Source: a virus
Lineage: Duplodnaviria; Heunggongvirae; Uroviricota; Caudoviricetes
Virus record (IMG/VR): IMGVR_UViG_2703718843_000003
Span: 1 to 22,204 of that record
DNA: 22,204 bases
Direction: 5' to 3' (one strand)
Below the pieces are notes generated by a model that saw only the letters and a program-made list of their open reading frames with translations, did not search any database and was not told where the DNA came from. Positions within the stretch are counted from its first letter, which is position 1; every line of letters starts with the position of its first letter. Below, piece by piece: positions 12,092 to 19,402 of the stretch. Both the position numbers and the translations under genes were made by a program.

Positions 12092-12363
12092 GTATTCGTA
12101 TCGAAATTGGCGAACGTTATGTCGTTACCAGTGACAGCTTTCAGTTTATTCTCCACGAGAAAAAGAGAGCGGAAAGCGGTAAAAACGCCGGTCAGGAGTG
12201 GCTGGCGGTGGTTGGTTATTACCCGAAATTAAGCCAGCTCGTTTCCGGCCTGATGCATCACGATATTCTGACCGGAAGCGCAAAGTCTTTTGCTGATTTA
12301 AACGCGCAGGTTGAGCAACTCAGCAAGCGTTGTTCAGAGGCTTTTGGCTCATATGACCGTTAA
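12088..12363 (+). CDS. Hypothetical protein (P2 orf83 position)
   Basis: 91-aa ORF overlapping the start of gene A. Confidence 0.5.
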   Translation: MSIRIEIGERYVVTSDSFQFILHEKKRAESGKNAGQEWLAVVGYYPKLSQLVSGLMHHDILTGSAKSFADLNAQVEQLSKRCSEAFGSYDR

Positions 12364-14629
12364 AGCCTCCGGGCATTTTGTCCCTCCGTCAGCATTTGCC
12401 GCAGGCACCGGTGAGACGTTTACCGGTGCTTATGCATGGAACGCGCCACGCGAGGCCGTCGGGCGCGAAAGACCCCTTACACGTGACGAGATGCGTCAGG
12501 TGCAAGGTGTTTTATCCACGATTAACCGCCTGCCTTACTTTTTGCGCTCGCTGTTTACTTCACGCTATGACTACATCCGGCGCAATAAAAGCCCGGTACA
12601 CGGGTTTTATTTCCTCACATCCACTTTTCAGCGTCGTTTATGGCCGCGCATTGAGCGCGTGAATCAGCGCCATGAAATGAACACCGACGCGTCGTTGCTG
12701 TTTCTGGCAGAGCGTGACCACTATGCGCGTCTGCCGGGGATGAATGACAAGGAGCTGAAAAAGTTTGCCGCCCGTATTTCATCGCAGCTTTTCATGATGT
12801 ATGAGGAACTCTGCGATGCCTGGGTGGATGCGCATGGCGAAAAAGAATCACTGTTTACGGATGAGGCGCAGGATCATCTGTATGGTCATGTTGCTGGCGC
12901 TGCACGTGCTTTCAATATTTCCCCGCTCTACTGGAAAAAATACCGTAAAGGACAGATAACCACGAGGCAGGCATATTCTGCCATTGCCCGCCTGTTTAAC
13001 GATGAGTGGTGGACTCATCAGCTTAAAGGCCAGCGTATGCGCTGGCATGAAGCGTTACTGATAGCTGTCGGGGAGGTCAATAAAGACCGTTCTCCTTATG
13101 CCAGTAAACATGCCATTCGTGATGTGCGTGCGCGCCGCCAGGCAAATCTGGAATTTCTTAAATCGTGTGACCTTGAAAACAGGGAAACCGGCGAGCGCAT
13201 CGACCTTATCAGTAAGGTGATGAGCAGTATTTCTAATCCTGAAATTCGCCGGATGGAGCTGATGAACACCATTGCCGGTATTGAGCGTTACGCCGCTGCA
13301 GAGGGTGATGTGGGGATGTTTATCACGCTGACCGCGCCGTCAAAGTATCACCCGACACGTCAGGTCGGAAAAGGCGAAAGTAAAACCGTCCAGCTTAATC
13401 ACGGCTGGAATGATGAGGCATTTAATCCAAAGGATGCGCAGCGATATCTCTGCCATATCTGGAGCCTGATGCGCACGGCATTCAAGGATAATGATTTACA
13501 GGTCTACGGTTTGCGAGTCGTCGAGCCACACCACGACGGAACGCCGCACTGGCATATGATGCTTTTTTGTAATCCACGCCAGCGTAACCAGATTATCGAA
13601 ATCATGCGTCGCTATGCGCTCAAAGAGGATGGCGACGAAAGAGGAGCCGCGCGAAACCGTTTTCAGGCAAAACACCTTAACCGGGGCGGTGCTGCGGGGT
13701 ATATCGCGAAATACATCTCAAAAAATATCGACGGCTATGCACTGGATGGTCAGCTCGATAACGATACCGGCAGACCGCTGAAAGACACTGCCGCGGCTGT
13801 TACCGCATGGGCGTCAACGTGGCGCATTCCGCAATTTAAAACGGTTGGCCTGCCGACAATGGGGGCTTACCGTGAACTACGCAAATTGCCTCGCGGCGTC
13901 AGCATTGCTGATGAGTTTGACGAACGCGTCGAGGCTGCACGCGCTGCCGCAGACAGTGGCGATTTTGCGCTGTATATCAGCGCGCAAGGTGGGGCAAATG
14001 TCCCGCGCGATTGTCAGACTGTCAGGGTTGCCCGTAGCCCGTCGGATGACGTTAACGAGTATGAGGAAGAAGTCGAGAGAGTGGTCGGCATTTACGCGCC
14101 TCATCTCGGCGCGCGTCATATTCATATCACCAGAACGACGGACTGGCGCATTGTGCCGAAAGTGCCAGTCGTTGAGCCTTTGACTTTAAAAAGCGGCATC
14201 GCCGCGCCTCGGAGTCCTGTCAATAACTGTGGAAAGCTCACCGGTGGTGATACTTCGTTACCGGCTCCCACACCTTCTGAACACGCCGCAGCAGTGCTTA
14301 ATCTGGTTGATGACGGTGTTATCGAATGGAATGACCCGGAGGTCGTGAGGGCGCTCAGGGGCGCATTAAAATACGGGCTGAGAACACCAAATCGTCAGCA
14401 GAGAAACGGAAGCCCGTTAAAACCACATGAAATTGCACCATCGGCCAGACTGACCCGGTCGGAAAGAATGCAAATTACCCGTATCCGCGTTGACCTTGCT
14501 CAGAACGGTATCAGGCCGCAGCGATGGGAGCTTGAGGCGCTGGCGCGTGGCGCGACCGTAAATTATGACGGGAAACCTTTCACTTATCAGGTCGCTGATG
14601 ATTGGCCGGGATTTTTGTTACCCATTTGA
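12353..14629 (+). CDS. A: Replication initiation endonuclease gpA (rolling-circle nickase)
   Basis: Start MTVKASGHFVPPSAFAAGTGETFTGAYAWNAPREAVGRERPLTRDEMRQ is near-identical to the remembered P2 gpA; contains the HUH-like GTPHWHMMLF region and the active-site Tyr region AGYIAKYISKNIDGYAL. Confidence 0.9.
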   Translation: MTVKASGHFVPPSAFAAGTGETFTGAYAWNAPREAVGRERPLTRDEMRQVQGVLSTINRLPYFLRSLFTSRYDYIRRNKSPVHGFYFLTSTFQRRLWPRIERVNQRHEMNTDASLLFLAERDHYARLPGMNDKELKKFAARISSQLFMMYEELCDAWVDAHGEKESLFTDEAQDHLYGHVAGAARAFNISPLYWKKYRKGQITTRQAYSAIARLFNDEWWTHQLKGQRMRWHEALLIAVGEVNKDRSPYASKHAIRDVRARRQANLEFLKSCDLENRETGERIDLISKVMSSISNPEIRRMELMNTIAGIERYAAAEGDVGMFITLTAPSKYHPTRQVGKGESKTVQLNHGWNDEAFNPKDAQRYLCHIWSLMRTAFKDNDLQVYGLRVVEPHHDGTPHWHMMLFCNPRQRNQIIEIMRRYALKEDGDERGAARNRFQAKHLNRGGAAGYIAKYISKNIDGYALDGQLDNDTGRPLKDTAAAVTAWASTWRIPQFKTVGLPTMGAYRELRKLPRGVSIADEFDERVEAARAAADSGDFALYISAQGGANVPRDCQTVRVARSPSDDVNEYEEEVERVVGIYAPHLGARHIHITRTTDWRIVPKVPVVEPLTLKSGIAAPRSPVNNCGKLTGGDTSLPAPTPSEHAAAVLNLVDDGVIEWNDPEVVRALRGALKYGLRTPNRQQRNGSPLKPHEIAPSARLTRSERMQITRIRVDLAQNGIRPQRWELEALARGATVNYDGKPFTYQVADDWPGFLLPI

Positions 14630-14814
14630 GTAAAAATACAGCGTGATTTTATATGTCTTTGAATGGATTATGCGAAGCACCTCTAAGGTAGATGAGGAGC
14701 AATAGTGTGTTGAATCAGAAGGCTAAATTGTATTGAATCGTTAGCATGTAATTGAAGGCAGCTATTTGATTCGAGTCATAAAAGAGCATCTATTTCGGTT
14801 AATAAAACCATTGC

Positions 14815-14860
14815 GAGTGACTTTATGTCGAAGCATAATTCATCTCGAGCGAAGTCTTGC
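14815..14860. repeat. Direct repeat copy 1 (GAGTGACT ... GAGCGAAGTCTTGC)
   Basis: Shares an 8-mer and a perfect 14-mer with copy 2 at 15100-15124; copy 1 has a 24-bp internal expansion. Confidence 0.45.
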
Positions 14861-14889
14861 TAGTCTTTCATCGGATTGATGACGGGCGC

Positions 14890-14919
14890 AAAAAAACCAC
14901 CCTGGCAGGTGGTTTTTTT
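14890..14919. terminator. Bidirectional rho-independent terminator (A7-CCACC..GGTGG-T7)
   Basis: Symmetric hairpin flanked by an A run and a T run; closes the replication operon on + and the small minus-strand ORF on -. Confidence 0.65.
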
Positions 14920-14931
14920 GTTTGAAGCATA

Positions 14932-15045
14932 CTAAAGAAAAATACTTACATGGATATTACTGACGTTTACTGACAAACCACTCGGACTACCATATGGATA
15001 GCCAAAGAGGGCCAGAACGAGAATGCAGTAATAGCACTTCTTCAT
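14932..15045 (-). CDS. Candidate 37-codon mini-gene encoding a small hydrophobic Cys-containing peptide
   Basis: Minus-strand AGGAGG SD 4 nt before ATG (15045); peptide MKKCYYCILVLALFGYPYGSPSGLSVNVSNIHVSIFL; stop TAG at 14932-14934 followed 13 nt later by the bidirectional terminator. Not in the ORF track (below its length cutoff). Coding status unproven. Confidence 0.3.
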   Translation of the reverse strand: MKKCYYCILVLALFGYPYGSPSGLSVNVSNIHVSIFL

Positions 15046-15099
15046 ATCGCCTCCTGTAAGCAGAGGGCAATTTCCGCCGATATATGCGCTTCTAAGGCG

Positions 15100-15124
15100 G
15101 AGTGACTATTGAGCGAAGTCTTGC
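15100..15124. repeat. Direct repeat copy 2 (GAGTGACTATTGAGCGAAGTCTTGC)
   Basis: See copy 1; the two copies bracket the terminator and the mini-ORF. Confidence 0.45.
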
Positions 15125-15701
15125 CCTGAAATAATGCTCTGTTTAAACGCAAAGTGATCTGGCATATCACTGAACAGAGAACCTGAACAACACAACATAT
15201 AGTATGTCGTTGTTTCTGGTTGCATTTTATGTTGTGTAATACTGGTTTTGCATCAAGGATGTTTGAGCTTTTTTTGATATAGCTCAAAGTAAAAAGCAGA
15301 GACTACGGATGATAAGGTCTTGAAAGCAATGTAAATTTTTTAAAGTTGTGAGTGGCTAGAAATGCACAGTTTCAATATGGCGGATTTAAACAAGTAATTA
15401 AAAATAGCGCCATAAATTCCAATAAAATCATTATGTTGCGTTTTCTGTGGAAACTGCGGTGACTCTGAAATTTTCTTTTAGTGTCGCTGAGGTTTAACAA
15501 CTCGCTGCGCAAGTAGTTAGTGTTTTTTTAACTCAATATCCTGATTTATAAGGTTTTTTATAAATCGTTGGCTGATTGCGCGTATTCATCTCGTGTTATC
15601 AGCAAAGATAAGCGCTATATGCAAAACTGAATGCATATATGATGTCGAAAATGTTATGGGAAAACGTGGATTAGTGTTATAGTAATGGCTGAAAAACAGC
15701 A

Positions 15702-15740
15702 TTGACATAAAATAACAACTGTGATATGGCTGTGCATACT
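15702..15740 (+). promoter_or_regulatory. Putative sigma70 promoter for the peptidase/membrane-protein pair
   Basis: TTGACA at 15702-15707; weak -10 candidates TATGGC (17-bp spacer, TG at -15/-14) or CATACT; about 30-60 bp upstream of a strong AGGAGG SD. Confidence 0.35.
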
Positions 15741-15766
15741 TAACTTTTTTAACGTAGGAGGCAACC

Positions 15767-16252
15767 ATGAGCTATGCAGCTAAAAAACTGCTTGACCGCT
15801 ATTGGGATCGCCGACTACCTGTCGATCCGTTTAAGCTTGCTAAAGCGTGGGGTGCTCGTGTTGAAGCACTTGAGGAATCGGCTTATAACAACGATGGGTT
15901 AAGCGGTCTGGCTGTCATCAAAAAGGGTGTCCATAGGATTTATTTTGATTCTAGTGAACATTCTAATCGTCAACGTTTTACTGTTGCACACGAGTTAGGT
16001 CATCATGTGCTGGGGCATACCCAGGACGGAGAGTACCATCGGGATAATGTCGGGAATTATTCAACAGGTGCTCGTGATTACCGTGAGGTTGAAGCAAACA
16101 AGTTTGCTGCTGAGTTGTTAATGCCTGAGTCTGCTATACGTCAATTGGTATCCAGAGAAGGTATTGATAGCACTTTGAGATTAGCAAGCATCTTTAATGT
16201 ATCAGAAGCCGCTATGCATTGGCGCTTAAAGAGCTTAGGAATGGCTTATTAA
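15767..16252 (+). CDS. ImmA/IrrE-family (M78-like) zinc metallopeptidase, orphan (no adjacent HTH partner)
   Basis: HEXXH motif H75-E-L-G-H79 followed by the family signature E107-V-E-A-N-K-F-A-A-E-L-L-M-P; ideal SD AGGAGG 5 nt upstream of ATG; AT-rich codon usage. Confidence 0.8.
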   Translation: MSYAAKKLLDRYWDRRLPVDPFKLAKAWGARVEALEESAYNNDGLSGLAVIKKGVHRIYFDSSEHSNRQRFTVAHELGHHVLGHTQDGEYHRDNVGNYSTGARDYREVEANKFAAELLMPESAIRQLVSREGIDSTLRLASIFNVSEAAMHWRLKSLGMAY

Positions 16253-16278
16253 TTAGCCTTTAACTTTTAACCTGTTTA

Positions 16279-16318
16279 AAATCACCTTTACGTTTGTACA
16301 TGTAAGGGTGATTTTTTT
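16279..16318 (+). terminator. Intergenic hairpin plus T7 tract (terminator/attenuator) that also contains the only SD-like sequence for the downstream gene
   Basis: AAATCACC (16279-16286) pairs with GGTGATTT (16307-16314), 20-nt loop, T run 16312-16318 ending at the ATG of the membrane-protein ORF; AAGGGTG in the 3' arm lies 8 nt before that ATG. Confidence 0.45.
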
Positions 16319-16918
16319 ATGGCTGATATTGATTTATCTGGACAGTCCCCAGAGCAAGGAACCACTCCTAAGGGCGATTTAGATCCTGATATCCTTATAA
16401 GGCGAGATCGACGCGATGGTATAGAGCGTAGAAGTATGCGATTAGTGCTCTCTGCCGTTGTGCTTTGTTTTGCTTGTACATTTCTATGGCAGGGGCTTAA
16501 CTTTGCTTTGGCTGTTGGAAATGGCTTGCTGGAAGCGAAAAGCAGTATTGCCACAGCGATAACACAAAAAGTAGATGCACAAACTTGTGTTTCAGCAGAA
16601 AAATGTTCTGCTTTATCTGCGGATCCGAAGATGGCTGATGAGAGGATAACACCATCTTCAGACACTAATAAAGTTAGAAAATCTATTTCTGGTTTATCCA
16701 CCGATTGGTTATCGGCCAGTTCTCTAATAGCTATTGTTGCATTCATCCTTGGTGTGGGTTTAACTTTGCTTTTGACTCTTCTTAAATCAGCATTTCAACA
16801 CCCGACAGATAAAGACTTTAGAACAAAGTCGACATCTAATACTATTGAGTTGGCCACGCCAATCAGTGAATTAATAATTGGTGTTCTGAATATAATTAAA
16901 GACAAACTATCTAAGTAA
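16319..16918 (+). CDS. Membrane protein with two predicted TM helices and a soluble N-terminal Arg/Asp-rich region
   Basis: Hydrophobic stretches RLVLSAVVLCFACTFLWQGLNFALAVG and LIAIVAFILGVGLTLLLTLL; no recognisable catalytic motif; 5' end uncertain (alternative Met at 16436). Confidence 0.65.
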   Translation: MADIDLSGQSPEQGTTPKGDLDPDILIRRDRRDGIERRSMRLVLSAVVLCFACTFLWQGLNFALAVGNGLLEAKSSIATAITQKVDAQTCVSAEKCSALSADPKMADERITPSSDTNKVRKSISGLSTDWLSASSLIAIVAFILGVGLTLLLTLLKSAFQHPTDKDFRTKSTSNTIELATPISELIIGVLNIIKDKLSK

Positions 16919-16959
16919 AGCATTAGTTGTGATTTTTTATTGGTTTTAGTGATAATACA

Positions 16960-16994
16960 TCTCCAGTACTTATTGCTACTGGAGAGTATTTTTA
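16960..16994. terminator. Bidirectional terminator between convergent cargo genes
   Basis: TCTCCAGTA-(8 nt loop)-TACTGGAGA perfect 9-bp stem followed by T-rich tract on +; 16 nt from the stop of the minus-strand 313-aa gene. Confidence 0.6.
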
Positions 16995-17000
16995 GTCGTT

Positions 17001-17942
17001 TTATATTTTTAATGTTAGTGAATGATATTCACGAGAGTTCACGTTCGATGTGATGTAATCGGGGGCGTTAACACCAAGAATCGCAACGAGCAATCGGCAA
17101 ATTAAAGCCTGCATTTGTTGTAATATGTCATCTCCATATTGATAATTGTTAATAGTGGTAAAGCCAAGTGGTTGACCATGAAACATAGCTTCATGAAAGT
17201 TTTCATTGCGGATGTTTGTAATGTTTTTTTTGCCTGTAACCCATGATGGTCGTGGTATGCCATAAGTTTTGCAGATCCACTTCAAGCGCCTGGAGTGATT
17301 TAGAGTCTTTTCTGTACACTTGTTCTTTTCTGCCCATGTTAAAGCAAAGCAACTATCCAGTGCCATATAAAGATACTGGAATTTTTCGAAGCTAAGGTAT
17401 TGTGGGTTTTGGGATAAAAATAGTGCATGCACTATTGCTGCTATATTTATTGGTGCGTGTTTGGTTTTTTTCTCGCTAGACATGTATTTGAGTGCTAATT
17501 CTATAACCTCTTTTTCAGAGCACTTGACCAGAATAAAGTCAGTTAATTTGCTGGGTTTTATTGGGGTTGCGTCTAAAAAACCGGCATCAGTAGTTGTTAA
17601 TCTTATCCCTTTGAAAAAAGACAGACACCACACAGCAAAATTGAGAGTTTCTAGTGAAGATGTATTTTTTAATTTTAGTGAGTGTGTTTTGGGTAAGCCA
17701 AATACTCGTTGGCTAAAAGGCATTGTGGATATGCCTCCATTGAGGTTATATACTTCTTGGTTTCCTGGGTATATCCAACCGTTAATAACATTTCTGTGAT
17801 TGTTTATAAGATTTGTTTTTTCCGCTAGACCGGGTAAAGTAAGTAAAGAAAAATCATCAGTTTCAACGTTAACCTCTACTGGATAGTATCCAAACTCAGC
17901 TTCAATATCATTGGATTGCTGTTCGTCAACTTTACCTTGCAT
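17001..17942 (-). CDS. Hypothetical 313-aa cargo protein, unknown family; possible HEPN-like R-x4-H motif
   Basis: Own SD (GGAG 6 nt before ATG 17942), AT-rich promoter-like sequences upstream, own terminator; R245-N-E-N-F-H250 (nt 17193-17210) fits the R-x4-6-H pattern of HEPN RNases, but no other HEPN evidence from inspection. Confidence 0.7.
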   Translation of the reverse strand: MQGKVDEQQSNDIEAEFGYYPVEVNVETDDFSLLTLPGLAEKTNLINNHRNVINGWIYPGNQEVYNLNGGISTMPFSQRVFGLPKTHSLKLKNTSSLETLNFAVWCLSFFKGIRLTTTDAGFLDATPIKPSKLTDFILVKCSEKEVIELALKYMSSEKKTKHAPINIAAIVHALFLSQNPQYLSFEKFQYLYMALDSCFALTWAEKNKCTEKTLNHSRRLKWICKTYGIPRPSWVTGKKNITNIRNENFHEAMFHGQPLGFTTINNYQYGDDILQQMQALICRLLVAILGVNAPDYITSNVNSREYHSLTLKI

Positions 17943-18179
17943 ACATTGCTCCGGTCAAAAATAGGCTCGATAATTCTCGTAAGCCTATCATGTTCGCAAA
18001 GTATCCATACCTGTGGATTTTGTAAATTTAAGTTGATTTGTCATTAAATAAGCCGTGCATGCAACAAGTGAATGTTTTTGCATGCGTCGGGGATGCCCGT
18101 TCCGGCTGCTTGCGGTCAGAGCTGGTGCGGATCCATAGTATCTAAGCAACTGCATTAAAACCGCCCTATGAAGCGGGCG

Positions 18180-18198
18180 GGCGAGGCGGGGAAAGCAC
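18180..18198. other. cos cohesive-end sequence GGCGAGGCGGGGAAAGCAC
   Basis: Exact match to the 19-nt cohesive end of P2/186/P4 as I remember it, located between the cargo island and gene Q, where cos lies in the circular P2 map. Confidence 0.7.
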
Positions 18199-18340
18199 TG
18201 CGCGCTGGCGGTGGTGCTGATTTTATTTTTTCAGCGTCTGAGCGCGTCGTGAAGGCGCTTAGTCTGCCCGTTGAGGCGTTGGTGTGTCTGCGGGGTGTTT
18301 TGTGCGGTGGTGAGCGTGTGAGGGCGTGATGACGGGGTGT

Positions 18341-18362
18341 AAAAAAGCCGCCCGCAGGCGGC
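18341..18362 (-). terminator. Terminator of the Q-P late transcript
   Basis: GCCGCC-CGCA-GGCGGC hairpin preceded on + by A6 (a U tract after the hairpin on the minus-strand transcript), 5 nt past the Q stop. Confidence 0.5.
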
Positions 18363-18367
18363 GATGT

Positions 18368-19402
18368 TCAGCCGTTGTCAGTGTCCAGTGAGTAGTTTTT
18401 AAAGCGGATGACCTCCTGACCGAGCCAGCCGTTTATCTCGCGGATCCTGTCCTGTAGCGGGATAAGCTCATTGCGGACAAAGACCTTTGCCACTTTCTCA
18501 ATATCACCCAGCGACCCGACGTTCTCCGGCTTGCCGCCCATCAACTGAAAGGGGATGCGGTGCGCGTCCAGCAGGTCAGCGGCGCTGGCTTTTTTGATAT
18601 TAAAAAAATCGTCCTTCGTCGCCACTTCACTGAGCGGGATAATTTTAATGCCGTCGGCTTTCCCCTGCGGGGCATAGAGAAACAGGTTTTTAAAGTTGTT
18701 GCGGCCTTTCGACTTCACCATGTTTTCGCGGAGCACTTCGATATCGTTGCGATCCTGCACGGCATCGGTGACGTACATGATGTATCCGGCATGTGCGCCG
18801 TTTTCGTAATACTTGCGGCGGAACAGCGTGGCCGACTCATTCAGCCAGGCAGAGTTAAGGGCGCTGAGATATTCCGGCAGGCCGTACAGCTCCTGATTAA
18901 TATCCGGCTCCAGCAGGTGAAACACGGAGCCGGGCGTGAAGGCTGTCGGCTCGTTGAAGGACGGCACCCACCAGTAAACATCCTCCTCCACGCCACGACG
19001 GGTATATTTGGCCGGTGAGGTTTCCAGTCTGATGACCTTACCGGTGGTGCTGTAACGCTTTTCCAGAAACGCATTACCGAACACCAGAAAATCCAGCACA
19101 AAGCGGCTGAAATCCTGCTGGGAAAGCCACGGATGCGGGATAAATGTCGAGGCCAGAATATTACGTTTGACGTAAATCGGGGAGCTGTGATGCACGGCAG
19201 CACGCAGGCTTTTTGCCAGACCGGTAAAGCTGATTGGTGGCTCATACCATCTGCCGTTACTGATGCACTCGACGTAATCCAGAATGTCACGGCGGTCGAG
19301 TACCGGCACCGGCTCACCAAAGGTGAATGCCTCCATTTTCGGGGCGCTGGCGGTCATTTTTTTTGCCGCAGGTTGCGGTGTTTTCCCTTTTTTCTTGCTC
19401 AT
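18368..19402 (-). CDS. Q: Portal protein gpQ
   Basis: 344 aa; position next to cos and downstream of P with TGATG stop/start overlap; sequence resembles remembered P2 Q. Confidence 0.9.
   Translation of the reverse strand: MSKKKGKTPQPAAKKMTASAPKMEAFTFGEPVPVLDRRDILDYVECISNGRWYEPPISFTGLAKSLRAAVHHSSPIYVKRNILASTFIPHPWLSQQDFSRFVLDFLVFGNAFLEKRYSTTGKVIRLETSPAKYTRRGVEEDVYWWVPSFNEPTAFTPGSVFHLLEPDINQELYGLPEYLSALNSAWLNESATLFRRKYYENGAHAGYIMYVTDAVQDRNDIEVLRENMVKSKGRNNFKNLFLYAPQGKADGIKIIPLSEVATKDDFFNIKKASAADLLDAHRIPFQLMGGKPENVGSLGDIEKVAKVFVRNELIPLQDRIREINGWLGQEVIRFKNYSLDTDNG

Follow-up and report, generated by a model that had tools for sequence, protein, structure and literature searches.

The 22,204-nucleotide window analyzed here belongs to a P2-like tailed phage (Caudoviricetes; IMG/VR record IMGVR_UViG_2703718843_000003), and the element in question is the cargo at its positions 14630-18179, between the replication gene A and cos-proximal DNA, to the right of which lie the portal gene Q and the terminase gene P. 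This interval is the gpA-gpQ hotspot, i.e., the position of tin and old in P2. Its guanine-cytosine (GC) content is 0.34-0.45 over 14600-18000, against 0.51-0.58 in gene A and 0.53-0.58 beyond 18000. A sequence-only reading had described an AT-rich interval with three genes at the tin/old site, and the location, the composition, and the position and strand of all three genes are borne out. The cargo comprises a leader with a candidate mini-gene and small RNA (sRNA), an operon for an M78 peptidase and a membrane protein with two transmembrane helices (2-TM), and a convergent open reading frame (ORF) for a protein of 313 aa (ORF313):

12311-14629, plus strand: P2 gene A (replication endonuclease), the left flank (PF05840, E 1.6e-123).
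14630-15480 (end approximate): mini-gene/sRNA cassette, a unit of ~850 bp, found in 150 of 5426 genomes.
15767-16252, plus strand: minimal ImmA/IrrE-type M78 zinc peptidase, 161 aa (PF06114, E 3.8e-21).
16319-16918, plus strand: 2-TM membrane protein, 199 aa, with two transmembrane helices (alignment A5).
16960-16985: terminator-like bidirectional hairpin between the 2-TM gene and ORF313 (scan of both strands).
17001-17942, minus strand: ORF313, with an N-terminal domain (~1-140) and a putative C-terminal HEPN domain (R245-N246-x3-H250-E251).
18050-18367: cos-proximal conserved P2 DNA, the right cargo boundary, where GC climbs to 0.54-0.58.

As a whole, 14630-18179 is best explained, in our view and with some reserve, as a composite hotspot cargo made of three autonomous cassettes that recombine independently. 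The interpretation offered by the sequence-only reading, a single undescribed anti-phage or exclusion module, is partly supported: it was right about the site and the nature of the cargo, and mistaken in treating the cargo as one unit and as undescribed. The points that appear new here are the probable HEPN identity of ORF313, a conserved hairpin in the peptidase operon, and a leader that looks like an autonomous toxin-antitoxin (TA)-like cassette with a captured nrdDG promoter.

Distribution and published record of the cargo

Among 5426 complete E. coli genomes, the flanks are matched in 2160 and the whole island in 46, which identifies the island as variable cargo between conserved flanks; it therefore has both the A-to-Q location and the variable content of hotspot cargo. 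The left flank carries the label 'replication endonuclease' in a genome with 100% identity. The whole island also occurs in Salmonella phage MET_P1_103_31, at 99% identity. The parts are more frequent than the whole in the same E. coli genomes, with ORF313 in 99 (47 of them with the present allele) and the mini-cassette in 150.

Each part is also found in other company. The leader and the peptidase+TM pair are present, and ORF313 is absent, in phage NC_070905 (locus tags P2DC1) and in many prophages of E. coli; the pair is also found in a chromosome of Serratia and on a plasmid of Enterobacter. P2-EC67, two Yersinia phages, and vB_EcoM-720R8 have only ORF313 in common with the window, amid unrelated neighbors (DUF2158 and ORF226, or DUF3850/ASCH and a small ORF). 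In Aeromonas chromosomes, homologues of ORF313 occur by themselves, and the one in P. aeruginosa (L018-L022, 9984-12960) lies in an island resembling an integrative and conjugative element, with ParB_N and DUF932 genes; the Gabija gene pair, an OLD-like TOPRIM ATPase with a UvrD helicase, is ~3 kb away, a defense-island context. The mini-cassette is the sole A-to-Q cargo of E. coli Ecol_542 and is followed in E. coli W by an AAA_15/AAA_21 ATPase pair; the homology of both genomes to the window stops at ~15395-15480 in alignment A7, and the cos-proximal DNA (window ~18050 on) comes directly after the mini-cassette in both. The pair in the E. coli W prophage (L028, 4996-6994) consists of the AAA_15/AAA_21 ATPase and a 190-aa protein without a Pfam match, typically defense-like, and represents alternative cargo at the mini-cassette junction.

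Because each of the three cassettes is found without the other two, they do not form one module. That peptidase, 2-TM protein, ORF313, and leader make up one new multi-gene anti-phage or exclusion system, as first proposed, would suit genes that are adjacent, AT-rich, and inside a known defense hotspot, and whose exact arrangement recurs in the 46 genomes and in the Salmonella phage. Against it, every unit is seen on its own in many genomes and in non-P2 contexts, ORF313 is convergent and cut off from the operon by a bidirectional terminator, and a published survey of the hotspot curated the genes as separate systems, #11 and #21 (Rousset et al. 2022). We consider the single system highly improbable, and the distribution largely refutes it. 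Neighboring genes in a hotspot need not form one system.

Nor is the cargo undescribed. Table S5B of Rousset et al. 2022 lists ORF313 as P2 hotspot system #11, with 218 occurrences, and Peptidase_M78 + 2TM as system #21, with 148; the sequences given under these two entries are those of ORF313 and the peptidase in the window, and the exact three-protein arrangement is present in Table S5A. The survey gives ORF313 no domain call and does not remark on the mini-gene/sRNA unit. The claim that no protein matches a named defense system stands: with PADLOC, neither the 199-aa nor the 313-aa protein had a match, and the peptidase had only a generic M78 one. Literature searches for the three protein accessions and for P2-EC67/ORF313 returned nothing relevant.

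Several points weigh against the three-cassette explanation and the functions that it assigns. A homologue of the peptidase+TM pair (TA280 allele) was cloned with the whole leader and mini-gene under native promoters as pFR104, which is missing from the validated systems and listed solely in Table S2B ('additional tested systems'); the panel comprised lambda, T4, P1, 186, CLB_P2, LF82_P8, AL505_P2, and T7, with no defense reported (Rousset et al. 2022). Among four P2-like isolate lysogens in that study, only AC1 was reported to be protective, and the P2DC1-labelled phage, which carries the peptidase+TM cassette, was not; genes for cytolethal distending toxin and for plasmid stability show that the hotspot also takes up cargo unrelated to defense (Rousset et al. 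2022). Rfam, Pfam, and NCBIfam searches revealed no likeness of the mini-protein to a known type I toxin; that the sRNA is transcribed, that the peptide is toxic, and that FNR is in control are predictions, and the function of all three cassettes is read from sequence, models, and comparison. The TM protein of pFR104 is, for its part, another allele, which resembles the 207-aa P0135, itself 55% identical to the TM protein of the window. The proposal of a defense candidate fares unevenly: the pFR104 homologue was not validated on its eight-phage panel, and ORF313 remains the best anti-phage candidate in the interval.

ORF313, a candidate HEPN protein

ORF313 was compared in two alignments, A1, which holds 33 of 603 homologues, and A8, with 29 sequences sampled to 25% identity. 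The C-terminal part carries the HEPN Rx4-6H motif as R245-N-E-N-F-H250; R245-N246-x3-H250-E251 is invariant in A1, R245 and H250 are invariant in both alignments, and H87, E186, and R283 are also invariant in A8. The region has the four-helix, up-down bundle of HEPN domains. The N-terminal domain contains the invariant H87 and a nearly invariant FGYYP and GFLDAT motif region. An exhaustive profile search found 657 clusters at 50% identity across Gammaproteobacteria, with a uniform length of about 290-325 aa and a longest member of 401 aa among the top 150 representatives.

PADLOC, Pfam, NCBIfam, and PHROGs gave no functional family for ORF313, only PHROGs of unknown function; Pfam and PADLOC models (ApeA presumably included) gave zero matches at E<=10 to the 33 family members, a PDB sequence search with ORF313 found no match, and Foldseek against PDB and BFVD found nothing significant. 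Short profile matches to ribonucleotide reductase R2 (41 residues, E about 0.01) were judged spurious. The protein had been called a 313-aa orphan, which is right insofar as no named system matches it and misses the invariant HEPN motif and fold. We propose, as a soft assignment, that ORF313 is a HEPN-type protein with a new N-terminal domain. This identity is a new point, and ribonuclease activity and dimerization are predicted from it. The invariant HEPN ribonuclease motif, together with the fold, makes ORF313 the real defense candidate of the interval.

Among HEPN effectors, the closest in layout is ApeA (Gao et al. 2020), which like ORF313 is encoded by a single gene and ends in a C-terminal, diverged HEPN domain with Rx4-6H. 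ApeA is also cargo of the P2/P4 hotspots ('HEPN_Apea' in Tables S1 and S5 of Rousset et al. 2022), and one ORF313 homologue is labelled 'Apea-like HEPN' in UniRef. However, ApeA is longer, at ~580 aa, is divided into an N-terminal, a Mid, and a split-HEPN domain, and assembles into decamers or dodecamers (bioRxiv 10.64898/2026.01.26.701840), and the N-terminal domain of ORF313 contains strands and is unrelated to it. In DARNA (456 aa) the domain order is the opposite, the HEPN domain being N-terminal and followed by a helical C-terminal domain of 300 aa that senses single-stranded DNA. Both were ruled out as the identity of ORF313 by architecture (313 aa, with no ~580-aa member in the top 150, in the case of ApeA) and by model scores. 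ORF313 shows no sequence similarity to DARNA or to the other standalone HEPN ribonucleases of abortive infection, PrrC, RloC, AbiV, AbiD/F, and the AbiA C-terminal domain.

By analogy with these proteins, the ORF313 cassette (17001-~18050) would encode a ribonuclease of the HEPN type that works on its own and starts with a conserved domain not described before. Most likely, this N-terminal domain would act as a sensor of infection and release a HEPN dimer to cut RNA (tRNA, mRNA, or phage RNA), and the outcome would be protection of the lysogen by an abortive-infection-type response, as for ApeA, DARNA, PrrC, and AbiV. ORF313 could also be HEPN-like and have nothing to do with phage defense, as the toxin of an unrecognized TA pair, an anti-defense factor, or a nucleotide-binding protein. 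Some HEPN domains are indeed non-catalytic binders, and the assignment is kept soft by the low model confidence (pLDDT) of the motif and by the lack of matches to sequence models. However, the Arg and His of Rx4-6H are invariant in a family of 657 clusters sampled to 25% identity, ORF313 is single-gene cargo in a defense hotspot and sits in a Pseudomonas island beside Gabija-type genes, and it has no conserved neighbor fit to be an antitoxin; we find a role outside defense quite unlikely. ORF313 is missing from the cloned constructs of Rousset et al. 2022, and no test of it elsewhere turned up in the literature searched. Read as a HEPN effector, the 11th commonest P2 hotspot cargo, so far without annotation or Pfam model, becomes a directly testable single-gene defense candidate with a putative new sensor domain.

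The peptidase operon

The second cassette (15700-16985) is a plus-strand, two-gene operon with two candidate control elements:

15702-15730, plus strand: candidate operon promoter, TTGACA-17 nt-TATGGC, with a weak -10 (read from the sequence).
16278-16315, plus strand: terminator-like hairpin with a U-run that encloses the GGTGA ribosome-binding site (inverted repeat I11).

The peptidase scores 75.6 bits against PF06114 (cut-off 22) and has the HExxH zinc site of M78 enzymes as H75-E76-L-G-H79, with the downstream E107/E109-x-x-A-N-x-F-A intact. It belongs to phrog_87, and its closest PDB matches are CapP (7t5t) and IrrE (3dte). Neither a helix-turn-helix (HTH) domain nor a C-terminal sensor domain is present. 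In PADLOC, the similarity is only the generic one of M78 proteins (capP, RmrA); the capP match (E 1e-30) covers profile positions 8-153 of 242, the protein ending at residue 161, and neither CapH nor CBASS genes occur in the window, so this partial match does not make it a CapP. No ORF of at least 20 aa with HTH character was found in 14600-15800 or in the rest of the island, and hence no cognate repressor.

The 2-TM protein consists of a variable, Pro-rich N-terminal tail, an ERRxMR motif, TM1, a loop with two conserved Cys, a TM2 with the near-invariant AFxLGVGLTLxLT, and a C-terminal helix. It has 51 homologues, in Enterobacterales and with weak matches in Vibrio, and falls in phrog_8096, a PHROG without function; PADLOC, Pfam, NCBIfam, and PHROGs gave no functional family, and its AlphaFold2 model (pLDDT 64) is too poor for fold inference. 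Public annotations differ on its start, 16319 (199 aa) or 16436 (160 aa); the longer form is probably correct, since ERRxMR is conserved upstream and the homologues cover 100% of the 199-aa protein. The 2-TM gene always follows a 161-aa M78 gene, a strict pairing seen in four contexts.

Conservation extends to the control elements. The TTGAC of the candidate promoter is kept in the P2DC1/L006 variant, and four cassettes retain the intergenic hairpin (dG -18 to -24 kcal/mol), changes in its stem being compensated by changes in the opposite arm. This conserved, predicted regulatory hairpin is a new point. A terminator-like hairpin over a ribosome-binding site implies strong throttling of the 2-TM protein, as expected for a harmful effector.

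ImmA of ICEBs1, IrrE of Deinococcus, and CapP, a CBASS regulator, have the same M78 fold and HExxH...ExxANxFA site as the peptidase, and ImmA is of similarly small size. They differ in partner and in length: these enzymes cleave an adjacent HTH repressor (ImmR, DdrO, and CapH, respectively), whereas the present one pairs with a 2-TM protein, and IrrE and CapP have extra C-terminal sensor domains that a protein of 161 aa does not have. The system Rst_3HP, which consists of three hypothetical proteins and acts against P1, was rejected as an identity, PADLOC giving no match to the 2-TM protein or ORF313 and the peptidase having a clear domain.

In the arrangement that we propose, a minimal ImmA-like zinc peptidase would be made ahead of a 2-TM protein whose expression the hairpin would throttle; the 2-TM protein may be a harmful effector or a sensor, controlled by the peptidase through cleavage of its cytoplasmic tail. 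The single published test, on a homologue, showed no defense by the pair. The cassette might also be a regulatory or conflict module of prophage or host, e.g., an ImmA-like anti-repressor protease with a membrane anchor or sensor, or a TA-like addiction pair. The characterized enzymes ImmA, IrrE, and CapP all cleave HTH repressors, no defense was reported for pFR104, the pair occurs in the chromosome of a Serratia as well as on a plasmid, where it lies beside a zeta-toxin gene, and a toxic partner would fit the tight throttling that the TM gene undergoes. However, the island holds no HTH gene, the 2-TM protein alone accompanies the peptidase in every case, and the published panel comprised just eight phages in one host. 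On balance, we regard a non-defensive module as unlikely.

The leader cassette and its promoter

From the stop of gene A to the start of the peptidase, the leader measures 1137 bp, of which the first ~850 bp form a discrete unit. It had been described as an 850-bp leader with repeats and a possible mini-gene; the mini-gene, preceded by AGGAGG, and an exact 14-nt repeat are real, while the stated length falls short of the full A-to-peptidase distance. The unit contains the following features:

14811-14839, plus strand: candidate sRNA promoter, sigma-70-like, TTGCGA-17 nt-CATAAT (promoter scan).
14846-14925, plus strand: candidate antitoxin-like sRNA of ~76-80 nt, 5' end GAGCGAAGUCUUGC, with three hairpins, the last being the terminator.
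14847-14860, plus strand: repeat copy 1, the putative sRNA seed, 14-mer GAGCGAAGTCTTGC (exact direct repeat).
14889-14920: bidirectional intrinsic terminator, common to the sRNA and the mini-gene mRNA (inverted repeat I10).
15045-14932, minus strand: mini-gene of 37 codons, MKKCYYCILVLALFGYPYGSPSGLSVNVSNIHVSIFL, with the Shine-Dalgarno (SD) sequence AGGAGG at 15055-15050, 4 nt before the ATG.
15111-15124, minus strand: repeat copy 2, the predicted sRNA target in the 5' untranslated region (UTR) of the mini-gene, 66-79 nt upstream of the ATG.
15137-15179, minus strand: 5'-UTR hairpin CTCTGTTT...GTGATCTGGCA.ATCAC...AACAGAG, nearly invariant in five homologues.
15216-15330, minus strand: copy of the E. 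coli nrdDG promoter, with the -10 TAAAAT at 15229-15224 and a predicted start at ~15216.
15274-15287 and 15243-15256, minus strand: FNR-like boxes, site-2-like and site-1-like, respectively.

The coding capacity of the mini-gene is supported by five diverged homologues (~75% overall identity), which retain the ORF, its SD, and its length (37-38 codons) and in which most of the differences fall on the third codon position (e.g., 7/6/17 and 8/7/21 for positions 1/2/3). In the same homologues the -35 and -10 boxes of the sRNA promoter are invariant, and the candidate sRNA is conserved in Klebsiella plasmids and in Kluyvera. The shared terminator, invariant in all homologues, has a perfect 13-bp stem (100% complementary) flanked by an A-run and a T-run. 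Predicted folding is stable both for the sRNA (-31.9 kcal/mol, z -4.2) and for the mini-gene mRNA with its 5'-UTR hairpin (z -4.1).

The 14-nt repeat links the two transcripts. Copy 1 lies 7 nt downstream of the CATAAT promoter, so that an ~80-nt plus-strand RNA would start with the repeat and end at the terminator, and since copy 2 lies in the mini-gene leader, the 5' end of this RNA would be complementary to that leader. Shuffling gives an expectation of 0.01 matches for an exact repeat of this length, and 0 of 100 shuffles produced two. The copies are kept in the homologues, with one G-to-A change that still allows G-U pairing, and the predicted sRNA-leader duplex is anchored at copy 2 in 6 of 6 sequences. 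In addition, CTGGCA occurs on the plus strand both in the terminator loop (14902-14907) and in the leader-hairpin loop (15160-15165), and both loops are invariant in homologues. The sRNA loop CUGGCA is complementary to the mRNA hairpin loop UGCCAG, which makes a kissing contact possible.

The cassette is not confined to P2-like prophages. Unannotated copies at ~74% identity, with no M78 gene in the vicinity, were found on about 396 Klebsiella plasmids, most of which are typed as conjugative (e.g., L016, 2501-2946, and L017, 2501-2961). In L017, a RES-domain/DNA-binding gene pair lies on one side of the copy and an Mla-like transporter on the other. When the genome contigs were scanned with a strict pattern, one further locus emerged, in Kluyvera (L027, ~1009-1211). 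Rfam (E<=1, 14300-18500) gave only sub-threshold chance matches of RNAI, Phe leader, and P9 on the terminator hairpin; the 37-aa mini-protein has no Pfam or NCBIfam match, and neither the mini-peptide nor the 14-mer was found in any paper by the literature searches.

The promoter of the mini-gene has a host counterpart. Window positions 15247-15340 match the nrdD-treC intergenic region in 5426 of 5426 E. coli genomes, the nrdDG-type promoter is oriented towards the mini-gene, and the sequence is 54/55 identical to the nrdDG promoter over the FNR boxes. The centers of these boxes are 31 nt apart, equal to the spacing of the nrdDG FNR sites at -64.5/-33.5 (PMC10425943), and the TAAAAT -10 sits where such a promoter should have it and is retained as TAnAAT in the mini-cassette homologues. 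The promoter is probably FNR-activated. A near-exact nrdDG promoter (15243-15340) inside phage cargo suggests that a mobile cassette captured an anaerobic promoter of its host; if so, an oxygen-responsive promoter copy would tie the maintenance or defense of a mobile element to anaerobiosis.

Overall, the layout appears type I TA-like: a gene for a small (<60 aa) hydrophobic protein with its own SD stands next to a putative, complementary sRNA with a conserved promoter, a 14-17-nt seed, and a terminator, the transcription and pairing of the sRNA being predictions. From the nrdDG-type promoter, the minus-strand mRNA would carry a structured leader of ~170 nt ahead of the 37-aa hydrophobic peptide; the ~80-nt convergent sRNA would pair through its 5' 14-17 nt with this leader, ~70 nt upstream of the start codon, and both transcripts would end at the one bidirectional terminator. 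The sRNA would repress the translation or stability of a peptide that may be membrane-active.

The likeness is to the type I loci ZorO-OrzO, TisB-IstR1, ShoB-OhsC, and DinQ-AgrB. These have in common with the mini-cassette a hydrophobic peptide of <40 aa and a long structured 5' UTR, and they likewise use a short (14-18 nt) trans seed, predicted for the mini-cassette, far upstream of the SD, not full antisense overlap. In contrast to these loci, where the sRNA gene is divergent and upstream, that of the mini-cassette is convergent and downstream, with a shared bidirectional terminator; the promoter is of the nrdDG-type FNR class rather than an SOS promoter, and there is no sequence or Rfam similarity.

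A small membrane protein that is induced anaerobically, regulated by an sRNA, and physiological in its role, or else a chromosomal remnant captured from near nrdD, would account for a promoter that copies a housekeeping anaerobic one and for a peptide without match to a known toxin family, and many small proteins under sRNA control are non-toxic. However, the carriers are phages and ~396 large Klebsiella plasmids, not core chromosomes, and the architecture fits ZorO-OrzO and TisB-IstR1; all parts of the cassette are under purifying selection, which argues that it is not a remnant. We think such a non-TA unit improbable, if not strongly so. Read as a TA-like unit, a leader that tends to be set aside as non-coding, and that went into published constructs without being noticed, appears to represent a self-contained small-protein/sRNA cassette common to P2-like prophages and hundreds of Klebsiella plasmids.

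A further-reaching proposal, which we make tentatively and with less than even confidence, joins two of the cassettes: ORF313 would found a new, widespread single-protein anti-phage family in which the conserved N-terminal domain gates a HEPN ribonuclease, and the leader would found a new type I TA family, a killer or persistence module armed anaerobically, as in the gut. If this holds, the captured FNR/nrdDG promoter would arm the module specifically under anaerobiosis.

Three minor observations concern the surroundings of the cassettes. Between the mini-cassette promoter and the peptidase promoter, a stretch of ~360 bp (15340-15700) diverges strongly from the P2DC1 allele, to about 60% in places, and a hairpin with a T-run at ~15495-15530 could terminate a further plus-strand transcript. 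In Serratia (L010, 7463-9246), ~1.8 kb downstream of the peptidase+TM pair, a 223-aa protein and a 371-aa HTH-M78 fusion recall the architecture of RmrA and adjoin nrdG and nrdD, the neighborhood of the copied promoter. Lastly, the mechanical ORF of gene A opens with TTG at 12311 (772 aa), and the RefSeq start lies ~42 nt later, at ~12353 (758 aa).

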